Source: a virus (taxonomy: Duplodnaviria > Heunggongvirae > Uroviricota > Caudoviricetes). Taken from it: a stretch of DNA of 17,225 bases. Shown here one piece after another: positions 6,048 to 17,225 of this stretch. The notes beneath the pieces are model-generated. The model worked only from the letters and a program-made list of their open reading frames with translations. It did no database searches and was not told where the DNA came from. Within the stretch, counting starts at the first letter, position 1; each line of letters opens with the position of its first letter. The DNA lies in the IMG/VR virus record IMGVR_UViG_2537561992_000019; one strand, written 5' to 3'. Both the position numbers and the translations under genes were made by a program.

Positions 6048-6203
6048 TTACTCCTCAGGTTCGTAAGCTGTGAAGACAGCGACCTCCGTCTGGCCGGTTC
6101 GGATTCGTACCTCGCAGAGGTCTTTCCTCGTTACCAGTGCCGTCACTATGACGGTTAAACAGATGACGATCAGGGCGATTAACATCGCCTTTTGCTGCTT
6201 CAT
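6048..6203 (-). CDS. hokD: Hok-family type I toxin, 51 aa
   Basis: MKQQKAMLIALIVICLTVIVTALVTRKDLCEVRIRTGQTEVAVFTAYEPEE matches HokD/RelF as I recall it; ATG at 6203..6201 with AGGAGA Shine-Dalgarno. Confidence 0.9.
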   Translation of the reverse strand: MKQQKAMLIALIVICLTVIVTALVTRKDLCEVRIRTGQTEVAVFTAYEPEE

Positions 6204-6375
6204 AACCTGCTTCTCCTTGCCTTTCGGCGCGTAAGAGGCTAACCTACGTTTGTGAAGCATAGATTGGGCCTCAGATTAATGTTAAGCGTCTTGCAGGACG
6301 CGTAATGTTAACTGGGGCTTTTCTCTGTCTGCCTTACGGTGGCATGCCCGAGGCAGACAGCCTCAAGCACCCGCA
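6204..6375 (-). promoter_or_regulatory. hok mRNA 5' leader, including a mok-like in-frame start at 6260
   Basis: 5' end sequence UGCGGGUGCUUGAGGCUGUCUGCCUC resembles the 5' end of plasmid R1 hok mRNA (recalled) and is complementary to the 3' end at 5983..5998. Confidence 0.5.
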
Positions 6376-10735: not shown

Positions 10736-11161
10736 TCAATGCACGACAACAGCATTACCAGGCTGACCACCACTGTTAGTCAGGGTGCCCCAGGCGATCG
10801 CCGCTGCGACAAAATCATCCACATCTTTCACCAGCCGATCCCTCCGTTCGACGATCTCACGGTAATATTCAGAGCTGTGACTGCGCATACGGGCCACCAG
10901 CAGAGGCGGCATTGCCTTTTCGATCGCCGGTAACAGAGCCTGAATTTTTTCAACAGCATCAGGGGTGTCTTTATCCAGCCAACGGAAAATTTTCTGGGTA
11001 TTACGAGCCAGGGCTTCCGGATGGCTGTCGTCGTACAGTTCCGGGAACGTCATCCCCAGCTCGAAATAAGTCCGGGCTATTTCAGCTGCAGGAACTTTCT
11101 CACCGTCCGGATAGGCCCAGGCATTGATCGCCATGCGGATGTGCTCATGTTTGATTTTCAT
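10736..11161 (-). CDS. YdaT-like protein at the cII position, 141 aa
   Basis: Starts MKIKHEHI...; its ATG overlaps the stop of the cro 3' fragment (ATGA). Family call is from recollection. Confidence 0.5.
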   Translation of the reverse strand: MKIKHEHIRMAINAWAYPDGEKVPAAEIARTYFELGMTFPELYDDSHPEALARNTQKIFRWLDKDTPDAVEKIQALLPAIEKAMPPLLVARMRSHSSEYYREIVERRDRLVKDVDDFVAAAIAWGTLTNSGGQPGNAVVVH

Positions 11162-11307
11162 GAATCCCCCTTTCCTTCGCCCTGAGTGGTATCCTTCTTT
11201 TTGTAAAGTTCTGGGTTCAAAGATAATTTCCCCTTGGAGTATGCAGCAGCTTCCGCAGCCCTCCCCTTCGGAACTATTTCACCAGGACGCTTACGCCACA
11301 TGTAAAT
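11161..11307 (-). pseudogene. cro: cro-like gene, 3' fragment (48 codons plus the duplicated ATT codon)
   Basis: Joins in frame with the 5' fragment at 13535..13615 once the IS and inverted segment are removed. Confidence 0.7.
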
Positions 11308-11350
11308 TGAGGTGTACTGGCAATAGCGGACACTACCATTTGTTCTTTTT

Positions 11351-12255
11351 TTAAGCAGCCATCTGATGATATTTTTCCCTGAAGGCTGCCGGGGAGATAT
11401 TCCCCAGACGAGAGTGACGACGCTGACGATTGTAGAAAATCTCAATGTATTCCCGTATTACTGAGATGGCTTCATCCCGGTTATTAAAACGATAGTGGCT
11501 CAGGCTCTCATTTTTCAGCGTTCCCCAGAAGCTTTCCATCGGAGCGTTGTCGTAACAGTTACCTTTACGCGACATTGATGTTTTCAGACCAAACTGCTCC
11601 TGTATGACCCGGTAATCGTATGCGCAGTACTGTGAACCTCGATCAGAGTGGTGGATTAGCCCGGCAGGTGGGCGCTGGCTCCTGAGCGCCATAAACAGAG
11701 CTTTACCTGTCAGCTCTTTTGTCATGCGCTCTCCCATGGCGTAGCCGACAATTTCGCACGTATAAACATCTTTGATGCCAGCGAGGTACAACCATCCCTC
11801 CTGTGTGGCAACATACGTCAGGTCCGCCACCCAGACCTGATTTGGTGCTGTAGGAGCGAACGTCTGGTTCAGCAGATTTGGCGCAACTGGCAGATTGTGG
11901 TTCGAGTTCGTAGTCGCTCTGAACTTGCGTTTCTGCTTACAGCGTAGCCTTAGCTCCTTACGAAGACGTGCCAGTCGGTCACGACCAACGATGATGCCAT
12001 TCTCTGCCAGCTCCGTCTGGAGCCGCCGGGTTCCATATGTTTCGCGAGTGCGGATATGTGCCACCTTAATCTCCAGTTTTAGCCGCTCATCACTTTGTTT
12101 CTGTCTGAGGGTTCATGCTGTACCCAGTTGTAATAACCGCTCCTGGATACACCAAATACCTGACACATCGCTTCAATGGGAAATTGTTGTCGCCATTGTT
12201 CGATTAACGCGTATTTTTCAGCGACTCCTGTGCAAAATACGCTGTTGCTTTTTTT
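11351..12255 (-). pseudogene. IS3-family transposase orfB, frameshifted by a 1-bp deletion
   Basis: TTT at 12098..12100 where copy 2 has AAAA at 14086..14089, truncating the OrfAB frame. Confidence 0.7.
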
Positions 12256-12506
12256 AATATATCTCGCTCAAGGCGAGCTTCATTTAACGCCTTACGCAGT
12301 TGCAGAATTTCAGATTCCAGTTCAGCCACCGTGCGGGAACCAGGAGTACCGAGCCCTTTTCTGGCGGCGGTAACCCATTGTCCTAAAGTGCCTTCAGGAA
12401 GAGATAATCGGGAAGCGCCTTCACTGATCGAAAGTTGATTTTCAAGAACCGTTCTGACAGCTTCGGCTTTGAACTCTTTAGAGTAACGTTGGGTTTTTCT
12501 GCTCAT
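12204..12506 (-). CDS. IS3-family transposase OrfA, 100 aa
   Basis: Protein identical to OrfA of copy 2; HTH-containing N-terminal transposase part. Confidence 0.85.
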   Translation of the reverse strand: MSRKTQRYSKEFKAEAVRTVLENQLSISEGASRLSLPEGTLGQWVTAARKGLGTPGSRTVAELESEILQLRKALNEARLERDILKKATAYFAQESLKNTR

Positions 12507-12698
12507 TATTAGCTCCTTCTGATGCCATTCTATTTCAGGAAGGAGTGTCCGTTAAACTCAGGCTACCTCACTGTTATACAAAGTGTTCCCGCCGTCATGT
12601 TCATACGCCTCGGGCTGGCTACTTAACCCCTGACCACTGCCGGGTAACTCGAGGTATTGCCCGACGTTCTGTGGGGCGAGGTAGGGTGGTATGTAATA

Positions 12699-12727
12699 AA
12701 TCTAAAAGTATTTAGTTTTTCAGTCAA
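12699..12727 (-). promoter_or_regulatory. candidate PL-like promoter (-35 TTGACT, 17-nt spacer, -10 TAGATT) with overlapping operator 12700..12717
   Basis: Hexamers read on the minus strand; operator ATCTAA-N6-TTAGTT overlaps the -10; palindrome AATCTAGATT at 12732..12741. Confidence 0.4.
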
Positions 12728-12746
12728 GATAAATCTAGATTAATTT

Positions 12747-12772
12747 AAAAAAAAGGTCGGCATTGCCGACCT
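12747..12772 (-). terminator. rho-independent terminator directly after the cI stop
   Basis: Hairpin GGTCGGC-ATT-GCCGACC followed by U8 on the minus strand. Confidence 0.6.
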
Positions 12773-12792
12773 CAAGTAAAGGACGTGGCGGG

Positions 12793-13440
12793 TTATAAGT
12801 TGAACTGTACACCTTTTGCTACGGCAACAATTTTACACTCTGGTGTAAGTAAGGATGACTGATAGCGTGGATTGAGAGGGCTTAAATACACAAGCTTCCC
12901 ATCAATAACTAATTTCTTTATAGTCATAGATGGTTCATTTTTAAGCGGATCCGGAACTATTACAGCGACGATGCTGCCATTTTTATAACTTTCTCCTGGC
13001 CTTAGGATCACAGTAGCACCAACTGGGATACTCGGTGATCCTGATGGGTTATGCATTGTGTCATCAGGCATTGAAACGGCAAAATCACCTTCCTCGACAT
13101 CAAAGAATGTGGTGATCCTATCGACATTTCCCATTGTTTTCTCTCCTTTTAAGATTAGGAAAGAAATCGCCTCACCCCACGAAAGGTAGGGGATCTTGGT
13201 GCCTGAGGTACTTTGTACAAAAGATAATTCAGGAGACGATACTCCATATAGGAGATAGGACTCAGTAGTTCCTAATGCCTGGGCTAACTTACTTAGAGCT
13301 TTGCTACCTGGTTCGTTTAGATCTTTCTCCCAGTACCCTATAGTAACCCCAGTCACGCCTGAAAGCTTACCCAGTTCTACTTGGGTCAGCCCCTTATCTT
13401 TTCTAAGTCTCTTAAGCCTGATGCCAAGGCTTTCCATCAT
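12793..13440 (-). CDS. cI: CI-like prophage repressor, 215 aa (N-terminal HTH, C-terminal LexA-like S24 peptidase)
   Basis: ATG at 13440..13438 preceded by AGGAGAAA. HTH LTQVELGKLSGVTGVTIGYWE; S24 region with Ser in AVSM and Lys in TIKKL, resembling lambda CI (recalled). Confidence 0.85.
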   Translation of the reverse strand: MMESLGIRLKRLRKDKGLTQVELGKLSGVTGVTIGYWEKDLNEPGSKALSKLAQALGTTESYLLYGVSSPELSFVQSTSGTKIPYLSWGEAISFLILKGEKTMGNVDRITTFFDVEEGDFAVSMPDDTMHNPSGSPSIPVGATVILRPGESYKNGSIVAVIVPDPLKNEPSMTIKKLVIDGKLVYLSPLNPRYQSSLLTPECKIVAVAKGVQFNL

Positions 13441-13479
13441 TTTCTCCTGCAAATTGAATATAAATTATTTTAGATTGCA

Positions 13480-13522
13480 TTGACCTAAAAAAAATTATCT
13501 TGTAATCTAAAAATACTTAGAT
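13480..13522 (+). promoter_or_regulatory. candidate PR-like promoter (-35 TTGACC, 17-nt spacer, -10 TAATCT) with perfect operator ATCTAA-N6-TTAGAT at 13505..13522
   Basis: Read directly; drives the cro fragment, which has AGGAGG Shine-Dalgarno and ATG at 13535. Confidence 0.45.
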
Positions 13523-13534
13523 TTAGGAGGTAAA

Positions 13535-13615
13535 ATGCGAGTTGATGAACTTGTCCAGTTTTTTGGTTCTGTTCAGAGGGTTGCCGATTTTTATGGGATA
13601 ACCCGCGAAGCTATT
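13535..13615 (+). pseudogene. cro: cro-like gene, 5' fragment (27 codons), truncated by the IS insertion
   Basis: MRVDELVQFFGSVQRVADFYGITREAI; the next codon is TGA supplied by the first bases of the IS. Confidence 0.7.
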
Positions 13616-13679
13616 TGAGGTAGCCTGAGTTTAACGGACACTCCTTCCTGAAATAGAATGGCATCAGAAGGAGCTAATA

Positions 13680-13982
13680 ATGAGCAGAAAAACCCAACGT
13701 TACTCTAAAGAGTTCAAAGCCGAAGCTGTCAGAACGGTTCTTGAAAATCAACTTTCGATCAGTGAAGGCGCTTCCCGATTATCTCTTCCTGAAGGCACTT
13801 TAGGACAATGGGTTACCGCCGCCAGAAAAGGGCTCGGTACTCCTGGTTCCCGCACGGTGGCTGAACTGGAATCTGAAATTCTGCAACTGCGTAAGGCGTT
13901 AAATGAAGCTCGCCTTGAGCGAGATATATTAAAAAAAGCAACAGCGTATTTTGCACAGGAGTCGCTGAAAAATACGCGTTAA
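13680..13982 (+). CDS. IS3-family transposase OrfA, 100 aa
   Basis: ATG at 13680 after GAAGGAG; contains the A7G run at 13931..13938 near its 3' end. Confidence 0.85.
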   Translation: MSRKTQRYSKEFKAEAVRTVLENQLSISEGASRLSLPEGTLGQWVTAARKGLGTPGSRTVAELESEILQLRKALNEARLERDILKKATAYFAQESLKNTR

Positions 13983-14836
13983 TCGAACAATGGCGACAAC
14001 AATTTCCCATTGAAGCGATGTGTCAGGTATTTGGTGTATCCAGGAGCGGTTATTACAACTGGGTACAGCATGAACCCTCAGACAGAAAACAAAGTGATGA
14101 GCGGCTAAAACTGGAGATTAAGGTGGCACATATCCGCACTCGCGAAACATATGGAACCCGGCGGCTCCAGACGGAGCTGGCAGAGAATGGCATCATCGTT
14201 GGTCGTGACCGACTGGCACGTCTTCGTAAGGAGCTAAGGCTACGCTGTAAGCAGAAACGCAAGTTCAGAGCGACTACGAACTCGAACCACAATCTGCCAG
14301 TTGCGCCAAATCTGCTGAACCAGACGTTCGCTCCTACAGCACCAAATCAGGTCTGGGTGGCGGACCTGACGTATGTTGCCACACAGGAGGGATGGTTGTA
14401 CCTCGCTGGCATCAAAGATGTTTATACGTGCGAAATTGTCGGCTACGCCATGGGAGAGCGCATGACAAAAGAGCTGACAGGTAAAGCTCTGTTTATGGCG
14501 CTCAGGAGCCAGCGCCCACCTGCCGGGCTAATCCACCACTCTGATCGAGGTTCACAGTACTGCGCATACGATTACCGGGTCATACAGGAGCAGTTTGGTC
14601 TGAAAACATCAATGTCGCGTAAAGGTAACTGTTACGACAACGCTCCGATGGAAAGCTTCTGGGGAACGCTGAAAAATGAGAGCCTGAGCCACTATCGTTT
14701 TAATAACCGGGATGAAGCCATCTCAGTAATACGGGAATACATTGAGATTTTCTACAATCGTCAGCGTCGTCACTCTCGTCTGGGGAATATCTCCCCGGCA
14801 GCCTTCAGGGAAAAATATCATCAGATGGCTGCTTAA
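13931..14836 (+). CDS. IS3-family transposase orfB segment, expressed as an OrfAB fusion by programmed -1 frameshift
   Basis: The -1 frame is open from the A7G run to the stop at 14836; first in-frame ATG is at 14018. C-terminal half has the IS3-family catalytic region (HSDRGSQY, MSRKGNCYDNAPMESFW). Confidence 0.8.
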   Translation, partial: KKSNSVFCTGVAEKYALIEQWRQQFPIEAMCQVFGVSRSGYYNWVQHEPSDRKQSDERLKLEIKVAHIRTRETYGTRRLQTELAENGIIVGRDRLARLRKELRLRCKQKRKFRATTNSNHNLPVAPNLLNQTFAPTAPNQVWVADLTYVATQEGWLYLAGIKDVYTCEIVGYAMGERMTKELTGKALFMALRSQRPPAGLIHHSDRGSQYCAYDYRVIQEQFGLKTSMSRKGNCYDNAPMESFWGTLKNESLSHYRFNNRDEAISVIREYIEIFYNRQRRHSRLGNISPAAFREKYHQMAA

Positions 14837-14934
14837 AAAAAGAACAAATGGTAGTGTCCGCTATTGCCAGTACACCTCACAGCGCAGCAGGTTTTTAGTT
14901 CCGCGACCCGGCGTTAAGGGTAAATGAGGTCAAC

Positions 14935-15087
14935 ATGGATATGCTCAATCTTGGCAACAATGAATCTCTGGTGTGCGGAGTATTCCCCAACCACGACGGC
15001 ACGTTTACCGCGATGACGTATACCAGAAGTAAAACGTTTAAAACCGAAGCTGGCGCGCATCGCTGGTTAGCAAGAAACGCTAACTGA
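14935..15087 (+). CDS. ydfA: small protein, 50 aa, YdfA/YdaF-like, first gene of the PL-type operon
   Basis: ATG at 14935 after GAGGT; position before dicF/dicB matches ydfA of Qin (recalled). Confidence 0.55.
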   Translation: MDMLNLGNNESLVCGVFPNHDGTFTAMTYTRSKTFKTEAGAHRWLARNAN

Positions 15088-15349: not shown

Positions 15350-15407
15350 TTTCTGGTGACGTTTGGCGGTATCAGTTTTACTCCGTGACTGCTCTGCCGC
15401 CCTTTTT
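15350..15407 (+). ncRNA. dicF: DicF small RNA (53 nt, 15350..15402) plus its terminator U-tract
   Basis: TTTCTGGTGACGTTTGGCGGTATCAGTTTTACTCCGTGACTGCTCTGCCGCCC followed by TTTTT matches E. coli DicF as I recall it; lies just upstream of dicB. Confidence 0.8.
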
Positions 15408-16045: not shown

Positions 16046-16942
16046 ATGAGTAAAGTCTTTATTTGCGCCGCCATTCCGGACGAACAGGCAATAAAGGAAG
16101 AAGGTGCAGTCGCTGTAGCCACTGCCATTGAAGCCGGTGATGAACGTCGCGCCCGCGCAAAATTTCACTGGCAATTCCTGGAACATTATCCGGCTGCTCA
16201 GGACTGCGCTTATAAATTTCTTGTTTGCGAGGATAAACCCGGTATACCCCGCCCTGCCCTCGATTCCTGGGATGCTGAATATATGCAGGAAAACCGCTGG
16301 GATGAGGAGTCTGCTTCCTTTGTCCCGGTTGAGACTGAATCAGATCCGATGAACGTCACTTTTGACAAGCTGGCCCCTGAAGTACAGAACGCTGTCATGG
16401 TTAAGTTCGACACATGTGAAAACATCACCGTTGATATGGTGATTAGCGCGCAGGAATTGTTGCAGGAAGACATGGCAACATTCGACGGACATATCGTTGA
16501 AGCGTTGATGAAAATGCCAGAAGTTAACGCCATGTATCCGGAGCTTAAGCTGCATGCCATCGGGTGGGTTAAGCATAAATGTAAGCCTGGTGCCAAATGG
16601 CCCGAAATTCAGGCAGAGATGCGCATCTGGAAAAAACGTCGCGAAGGTGAACGCAAGGAAACCGGAAAATACACGTCTGTTGTTGATCTCGCCCGCGCCA
16701 GAGCCAATCAACAGAACACTGAAAATTCAACAGGAAAAATCAGCCCGGTCATTGCTGCCACTCATCGCGAATACAAGCAGACATGGAAAACACTGGATGA
16801 CGAACTGGCCTACGCTCTCTGGCCTGGTGATGTGGATGCCGGAAACATTGACGGCAGCATCCATCGCTGGGCAAAAAAAGAAGTTATCGACAACGACCGC
16901 GAAGACTGGAAGCGCAGTCTCAGCAATGCGCAAACAGCCTGA
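16046..16942 (+). CDS. ydfE: YdfE-like hypothetical protein, 298 aa
   Basis: Long acidic ORF directly after ydfD, as in Qin; family call is from recollection. Confidence 0.6.
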   Translation: MSKVFICAAIPDEQAIKEEGAVAVATAIEAGDERRARAKFHWQFLEHYPAAQDCAYKFLVCEDKPGIPRPALDSWDAEYMQENRWDEESASFVPVETESDPMNVTFDKLAPEVQNAVMVKFDTCENITVDMVISAQELLQEDMATFDGHIVEALMKMPEVNAMYPELKLHAIGWVKHKCKPGAKWPEIQAEMRIWKKRREGERKETGKYTSVVDLARARANQQNTENSTGKISPVIAATHREYKQTWKTLDDELAYALWPGDVDAGNIDGSIHRWAKKEVIDNDREDWKRSLSNAQTA

Positions 16943-17225
16943 TGCCCTTCGCTACGACCGCCAGACTATTTTTGGCCTTGTCCGTGAACGTCCGATCGAC
17001 ATTCACAAAGACCCTGTGGCACTGAACAAATACATTACTGAATACCTGACTACAAAGGGCGTGTTTGAAGATGAAGGAAGAAATCAGAGCGCAACTGATA
17101 CTCTCTCGTCGCCAGTACCAGAAACTGATGCAGTGGAAACGGCAATTCCGGACAACGAAAAACCGAATAGCAAAGTGGAAGTCGAACCATCTGTAGAGCG
17201 TGAAGGGCCGTTCTACTTCCTCTTC
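16926..17225 (+). CDS. hypothetical protein, N-terminal 100 codons, runs off the window end
   Basis: ATG at 16926 overlapping the previous gene by 17 nt; 100 codons with no stop. A competing 40-codon frame from ATG 17071 is less likely. Confidence 0.35.
   Translation, partial: MRKQPDALRYDRQTIFGLVRERPIDIHKDPVALNKYITEYLTTKGVFEDEGRNQSATDTLSSPVPETDAVETAIPDNEKPNSKVEVEPSVEREGPFYFLF

Follow-up and report, generated by a model that had tools for sequence, protein, structure and literature searches.

The window, an entire draft contig of 17,225 bp (ADUN01000023.1 of GCA_000188755.2), contains the early region of a lambdoid prophage of the type that adjoins potC in E. coli O26:H11 str. 11368. Within this region, cro lies in two pieces on opposite strands, 2.2 kb apart. 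The 5′ fragment (13535-13618, plus strand) comprises 27 codons closing in an ATT target site (13613-13615), followed by a TGA stop codon (13616-13618) made of the first bases of an IS600 element, and translation of 13535-13615 gives MRVDELVQFFGSVQRVADFYGITREAI. The 3′ fragment (11158-11307, minus strand) consists of a duplicate ATT (11305-11307), codons 28-75 and a TGA stop codon (11158-11160); it matches the 3′ part of intact cro at 100% and is translated, up to the stop, as I-YMWRKRPGEIVPKGRAAEAAAYSKGKLSLNPELYKKKDTTQGEGKGDS. This TGA overlaps, as ATGA, the start codon of a ydaT-like gene (10736-11161, minus strand), a cII analogue with which the intact part of the right early operon begins. 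The 141-aa product of this gene scores 42.8 bits against the Pfam YdaT_toxin profile (cut-off 21) and is identical to WP_000693816.1 of O26:H11 11368.

Two IS600 copies separate the pieces of the prophage. Copy A (11308-12570, minus strand; 1,263 nt) has inverted-repeat arms at 100% and is annotated as IS600 in the matching genomes. Copy B (13616-14879, plus strand; 1,264 nt) is identical over 1264/1264 nt to elements annotated "IS3-like element IS600 family transposase", which places it in the IS600 family. It also carries orfA (13680-13982) and orfB (14018-14836) in consecutive frames, with a 100-aa ORF matching HTH_Tnp_1 and a 272-aa ORF matching rve in Pfam, and it scores 334.7 bits against NCBIfam transpos_IS3 (cut-off 160). 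The two copies stand in inverted orientation and are 100% complementary save for one A absent from an A-run in copy A, at IS position 471, which cuts its orfB to 237 aa. IS3-family elements typically generate a 3-bp target duplication. As assembled, non-matching triplets flank each copy, and the duplications ATT/ATT and CAG/CAG pair only after the segment between the two elements is flipped back.

This middle segment is an immunity cassette of 1,045 bp (12571-13615), which begins with CTG (a copy of the CAG duplication), ends with ATT, is inverted with respect to its flanks and, in alignment with the reference, runs opposite to both of them. It holds OL/PL, the cI terminator, cI, OR/PRM/PR and the first 27 codons of cro. 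A putative PL (TTGACT-17-TAGATT; 12699-12727, minus strand) was found by promoter scan and overlaps a palindromic operator-like site, OL (12699-12718), and a terminator-like hairpin with a T-run (12753-12773, minus strand) lies directly downstream of cI. The cI repressor gene (12793-13437, minus strand) is intact; its 214-aa product contains the Pfam domains HTH_3 and Peptidase_S24 and is identical to the LexA-family protein WP_000444615.1 of O26:H11 11368. Two further palindromic operator-like sites (13457-13476 and 13504-13523) make up the OR region (13457-13523) between cI and cro. The operator pattern search returned three hits, all inside the cassette, compared with 0.56 expected by chance. 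Beyond copy B, the left operon starts (14880-15087, plus strand) with a copy of the CAG duplication (14880-14882), the rest of the PL leader and its first gene, DUF1391 (14935-15087; Pfam). The DicF sRNA of this operon (15351-15402, plus strand; Rfam RF00039, 76.7 bits) now lies downstream of PR and IS600 copy B.

When the two cro fragments are fused with one ATT removed, they form in frame a 228-nt gene for a 75-aa product, which agrees with the original prediction in coordinates and translations, as do the end of the 5′ fragment exactly at the IS boundary and the ATGA overlap. The rejoined gene is identical, end to end (228/228 nt), to an uninterrupted gene annotated as "Cro/CI family" (WP_001261752.1). 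Matches with at least 80% coverage occur in 474 of the 5,426 complete E. coli genomes, 346 of them at an identity of at least 99%. The PL-side junction, rebuilt likewise over 448 nt, is uninterrupted and 100% identical in other genomes. In the reconstruction, cro heads the rightward early operon, divergent from cI across the operator region, and it is followed by the cII-type gene and the replication genes, as in the intact references.

The rebuilt protein had been described as Cro/YdaS-like, and of this label the Cro part stood. It matches Pfam P22_Cro (PF14549) at 38.3 bits (cut-off 30.2; E 1.2e-9) over profile positions 4-59 of 60, and its nearest solved relative is the Cro protein of phage N15 (PDB 2HIN). 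The YdaS family (PF15943, YdaS_toxin) was rejected, since its profile scores the protein at 16.2 bits where 30 are required. N15 Cro is modestly similar (E 2.6e-4), its residues 1-42 aligning with residues 1-43 of the rebuilt protein, including a G-[IV]-T-x-x-A-[IV]-Y-x-W stretch. By these profile and alignment scores, the protein is a P22/N15-type Cro, not a member of the YdaS family. As we read the alignments with Pfam and N15 Cro, the break falls in what we take to be the recognition helix. By analogy with the YdaS protein of CP-933P (PMC8630535), the rebuilt Cro might bind the OR operators and repress PRM. As judged from the sequence, cro here is a pseudogene predicted to encode only a 27-residue stub, because its frame ends after codon 27 at the IS600 TGA and the other 48 codons, on the opposite strand, have no start signal of their own, leaving this genome without an intact expressible cro ORF.

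Deleting both IS copies together with one copy each of ATT and CAG, and flipping the middle segment, gave a reconstruction that aligns in a single piece to the O26:H11 lambdoid prophage (14,692 nt at 99.88%), so that the scheme of IS removal, ATT removal and inversion that had been put forward holds across the early region. The three blocks individually match this one reference prophage at 99.6-99.9%, the middle block being reversed. The arrangement thus displays inverted IS copies, exchanged target duplications and colinearity with an uninverted relative after flipping, by which an IS-mediated inversion is recognized. Given the 228-nt, 448-nt and 14.7-kb matches, the pattern of the split gene is, at the level of sequence, far beyond chance. 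We propose that two IS600 elements transposed into the prophage early region and landed in inverted orientation: one would have entered cro between codons 27 and 28, duplicating ATT, and the other would have hit the PL leader at a point some 55 nt upstream of the DUF1391 gene, with duplication of CAG. Homologous recombination between the two copies would then have flipped the 1,045-bp cassette. This joint account of two insertions, a cut cro and a cassette flipped by recombination is very likely, in our estimation. The same insertions were found in none of the 5,426 complete E. coli genomes (megablast with the 3.9-kb region and with each IS junction), in which the IS half or the phage half alone was matched; likewise, an exact search of the GTDB species-representative genomes returned no cro5′/IS600 junction.

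The quality of the assembly bears on how far this account can be taken. Differences between the contig and the reference are mostly 1-nt homopolymer indels, together with a garbled patch at 16915-16923, and these look like sequencing error. Such evident base-level errors in a draft assembly might suggest that reads from IS600 produced a chimeric misassembly and that the split is absent from the real genome, where cro would be intact. However, complete IS ends abut the phage sequence with clean 3-bp duplications of ATT and CAG, whereas a chimera would not duplicate target bases, and tblastn found no intact cro and no second cro-like sequence within the window; a chimera is accordingly highly improbable. 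Even less probable is an origin of the fragments from two prophages with related cro genes that were joined by IS-IS recombination, in which case they would not be halves of one gene. STEC genomes are indeed rich in lambdoid prophages and in IS600, with up to 52 IS-containing places per genome, but ATT is duplicated exactly at both breakpoints, one single allele matches the rejoined gene at 100%, and the three blocks, all of which match the same prophage, fit together seamlessly.

A more serious, though still unlikely, alternative accepts both IS600 insertions as real and questions the inversion, which may be absent or may represent one of two coexisting orientations, the allele in the cell being cro 5′ - IS600 - cro 3′. 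The assembler had to orient a segment of about 1 kb between identical 1.26-kb inverted repeats, and the source is a whole draft contig whose homopolymer indels are typical of error-prone reads. In addition, the four junctions (cro3′/IRR, IRL/PL leader, cro5′/IRL and IRR/DUF1391 side) are the same whether the cassette is flipped or unflipped, and therefore reads shorter than 1.26 kb cannot fix its orientation. On the other hand, the two IS copies differ by one base, whereas a collapsed repeat pasted twice would be identical, which hints at separate assembly, and RecA could, in terms of mechanism, readily bring about an inversion between inverted repeats 1.26 kb long. In either orientation of the cassette, cro is disrupted.

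With the cassette flipped, as in our preferred reading, cI and all three operator-like sites remain together and intact, and 1.26 kb of IS600 stands between every early gene and its promoter. PR now faces, through IS600 copy B, the DUF1391-dicF-dicB-exonuclease genes, while PL faces, through copy A, the 3′ piece of cro and then ydaT, O and P. As no terminator-like site was found on the sense strand of IS600, transcripts from PR and PL may to some extent run on into the swapped operons. We expect that immunity based on cI would persist, that a Cro-dependent lytic state would be neither set up nor held, and that early lytic transcription would be polar or miswired, so that the prophage would effectively be locked in. 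The original prediction had considered it probably locked or cryptic, and from the gene arrangement this is a reasonable inference. Losing Cro is probably no more harmful than having both early operons cut off from PR and PL by the IS copies. The reference prophage, in which cro is intact, already has a portal gene annotated as frameshifted, and the element may have been defective even before cro was hit.

The closest known systems are the lambdoid prophages of O26:H11 str. 11368, O157:H7 and other STEC that encode WP_001261752.1, whose 75 aa are identical to the reconstruction and whose neighbours are as here: a divergent LexA-like cI, with ydaT, a DnaT-like O protein gene and P downstream. 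They differ from the present element in that its cro is cut after codon 27 by IS600, at a junction that none of the complete E. coli genomes searched contains. The cryptic prophages CP-933P and Rac share the same layout of a repressor, a divergent small HTH gene and ydaT, and in CP-933P YdaS is Cro-like and YdaT CII-like in action (PMC8630535; PMC9986795). However, the present element has a LexA-like S24 repressor in place of PaaR2 or RacR, and the small HTH protein falls under the YdaS_toxin cut-off. Consistent with the expected lytic defect, the ydaST-on (lytic-like) state of the related CP-933P immunity region is lost when ydaS, the analogue of Cro, carries stop codons (PMC8630535). Inactivation of a gene by simple insertion of IS600 has been described for lacZ of STEC O121:H19, where the element is also described as excisable by IEE with restoration of the gene (PMC9397093). 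Unlike in the lacZ case, the two copies of each duplication here flank different IS copies after the inversion, and therefore simple precise excision of one IS should be unable to restore cro.

There is a very slim chance that the IS600-bracketed 1-kb cassette is a reversible, RecA-driven flip-flop that swaps which early operon PR and PL face. If so, cell-to-cell heterogeneity in prophage gene expression would follow, and IEE-type precise excision of IS600 could restore cro in the unflipped state only.

The IS600 split of cro in this lambda-like E. coli prophage is genuine, yet it is ordinary prophage decay; the finding matters little beyond annotation. Both pieces of cro should be listed in the annotation as a single disrupted gene, and the case is a reminder that, where a draft assembly places a short segment between inverted copies of an IS, the orientation of that segment is to be regarded as unverified. 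For the strain itself, its copy of a common STEC lambdoid prophage carries a cro pseudogene and two early operons interrupted by IS600, and therefore the prophage should be scored as defective, not as inducible.

The two cro fragments were re-translated from the window, at 13535-13615 (plus strand) and 11158-11307 (minus strand), and both the coordinates and the translations of the original prediction proved correct. The 5′ fragment reads MRVDELVQFFGSVQRVADFYGITREAI and is directly followed by a TGA consisting of the first three bases of IS600 B, so that the truncated frame stops exactly at the predicted IS boundary. The 3′ fragment reads I-YMWRKRPGEIVPKGRAAEAAAYSKGKLSLNPELYKKKDTTQGEGKGDS-stop, and its TGA overlaps, also as foreseen, the ATG of a 141-aa YdaT_toxin-family ORF (10736-11161, minus strand). 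Joining the fragments and dropping one ATT restored the anticipated reading frame as a 228-nt ORF, all 228 nt of which are 100% identical to an uninterrupted gene annotated as “Cro/CI family transcriptional regulator” (WP_001261752.1); this identity indicates that the two fragments are halves of one gene. Matches to the rebuilt gene at coverage of at least 80% were found in 474 of 5,426 complete E. coli genomes (346 at an identity of at least 99%), and among the matches listed the gene 3′ of intact cro is “toxin YdaT family protein”. In O157:H7 PV15-279 and O26:H11 11368, intact cro has a divergent LexA-family repressor on one side and ydaT, DnaT-like O and P on the other.

Of the proposed “Cro/YdaS-like” nature of the rebuilt protein, the Cro part stands and the YdaS part does not: it passes the Pfam P22_Cro threshold (38.3 bits against 30.2), with phage N15 Cro as its nearest solved relative (2HIN; E 2.6e-4, residues 1-43), and fails that of YdaS_toxin (16.2 bits against 30). 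A weak resemblance to DicC was also observed. The IS break lies between I27 and Y28, within a conserved GIT-REAIYMW stretch that aligns with GVT-PGAVYQW of N15 Cro and that probably corresponds to the turn plus recognition helix. A tblastn search over the window found no further cro-like sequence, and hence no intact second cro.

The two IS600 copies, IS600 A (11308-12570, minus, 1,263 nt) and IS600 B (13616-14879, plus, 1,264 nt), are inverted and complementary at 100% except for one A, which IS600 A lacks in an A-run at its position 471 (window 12098-12100 or so). Because of this missing base, the orfB ORF of IS600 A is reduced to 237 aa, compared with 272 aa in IS600 B, which points either to a dead transposase copy or to a homopolymer read error. 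IS600 B is identical (1264/1264) to elements annotated “IS3-like element IS600 family transposase”, carries ORFs of 100 aa with HTH_Tnp_1 and 272 aa with rve/DDE (Pfam), and scores 334.7 bits as an NCBIfam IS3-family transposase. In addition, a putative 95-aa ORF (11158-11445, minus) starts at a TTG within the 3′ end of IS600 A and continues in the same frame across the element end into the cro 3′ fragment.

The window represents the entire contig ADUN01000023.1 (17,225 bp) of a draft assembly (GCA_000188755.2), and departs from the O26 reference mainly through 1-nt homopolymer indels, together with a garbled patch at 16915-16923. Because of this patch (net −2 nt), the RecE-like exonuclease (16046-16942) meets a stop at 16942 after 298 aa, compared with 823 aa in O26:H11 11368; more 1-nt indels lie in this region at 17162 and 17169, and the disruption more probably reflects faulty sequencing than a true pseudogene. 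A SASA-family carbohydrate esterase (135-446) is left with 103 aa by a 1-nt deletion at 227 relative to the reference, and single-base homopolymer deletions also occur at 666, 793 and 12747. The one-base difference between the IS600 copies is of the same kind as the homopolymer indels, and all of these, like the garbled patch, look like read errors.

A 3-bp target duplication is expected of an IS3-family element. As assembled, the flanking triplets read AAT-IS600 A-CTG and ATT-IS600 B-CAG, with no direct target duplication around either copy; after flipping the 1,045-bp cassette between them (12571-13615), they read AAT-IS-AAT and CAG-IS-CAG. Alignment with reference prophages gave three blocks, the middle one opposite in orientation to its flanks, with a 4-nt overlap at each junction that includes the 3-bp duplication. 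When both IS copies and a single copy of each duplication were taken out and the middle block was flipped, the remaining 14,692 nt matched the O26:H11 11368 prophage in one alignment at 99.88%; other genomes contain the second rebuilt junction (cI terminator, PL, leader, DUF1391) without interruption and at 100% identity. The reconstruction and the rebuilt junctions indicate two independent IS600 insertions, one in cro and the other in the PL leader ~55 nt upstream of DUF1391, after which the two copies probably recombined. All four IS junction sequences are common to the flipped and the unflipped cassette, so reads shorter than the IS cannot fix its orientation; the inversion could thus have been introduced in the assembly or coexist with the other orientation in a mixed population, which we regard as possible, if rather unlikely. 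The IS600 insertion in cro is independent of this question.

In the inverted arrangement favored here, the cassette contains the cro stub, a terminator-like hairpin after cI, a PL-like promoter (12727-12699) and a 214-aa cI (HTH_3 and Peptidase_S24) identical to that of the intact prophage. The palindrome AATCTAA-N6-TTAGATT has three matches in the window (12699, 13457 and 13504; chance expectation 0.56), all in the cassette. As cI, the hairpin, PL and all three palindromes lie inside it, the repressor and operators remain together and intact, and the targets that they normally control are now across an IS600. Downstream of PR, IS600 B is followed by DUF1391, DicF (Rfam), dicB, DUF1482 and the exonuclease; downstream of PL, IS600 A is followed by the cro 3′ piece, ydaT, O and P. 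The two early operons are thus physically uncoupled from their native promoters. PR and PL each enter their IS600 copy in the sense direction, and no sense-strand terminator-like site was found in either copy, so some read-through is conceivable.

Other prophage cargo was also recognized. The DicF sRNA (15351-15402), upstream of dicB, and a sok antisense RNA adjoining a hokD-type toxin locus (6198-6372) belong to typical Qin/Rac-like cargo, intact here. In a late-region intergenic stretch, the AgvB anti-GcvB sRNA (594-655, plus) directly adjoins STnc100 (656-846, minus; both Rfam). Two tRNA genes on the minus strand (1616-1692 and 1793-1868) comprise an Arg (tct) tRNA and a CAT-anticodon tRNA, the latter called Met by ARAGORN and Ile in the O26 record.

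Gene, IS and prophage type are all well known, as are the mechanisms, insertional inactivation and inversion through recombination of inverted IS copies. Neither the 5,426 complete E. coli genomes nor the GTDB species-representative genomes contain this IS600-split cro allele, which is therefore strain-specific and not new in kind. The reference prophage, whose cro is intact, is otherwise near-complete and lambdoid, with genes that range from int and xis to those for lysis, terminase, head and tail; as its portal gene (33431-36015 of our locus L002, NC_013361.1) is annotated as frameshifted, this lineage may have been defective already. IEE-assisted excision of IS600 can restore a gene, as shown for lacZ in O121:H19 (PMC9397093), whereas here a single excision would not rebuild cro, because the flip has left the two members of each matching duplication next to different IS copies. 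Stop codons in ydaS, the Cro analogue of the related CP-933P immunity region, abolish the ydaST-on population (PMC8630535). Judged from its sequence, cro is a pseudogene here, and the original prediction had proposed a broken lytic switch in a probably locked or cryptic prophage. We infer that cI immunity persists and that the Cro-dependent lytic state could be neither established nor held by this prophage.
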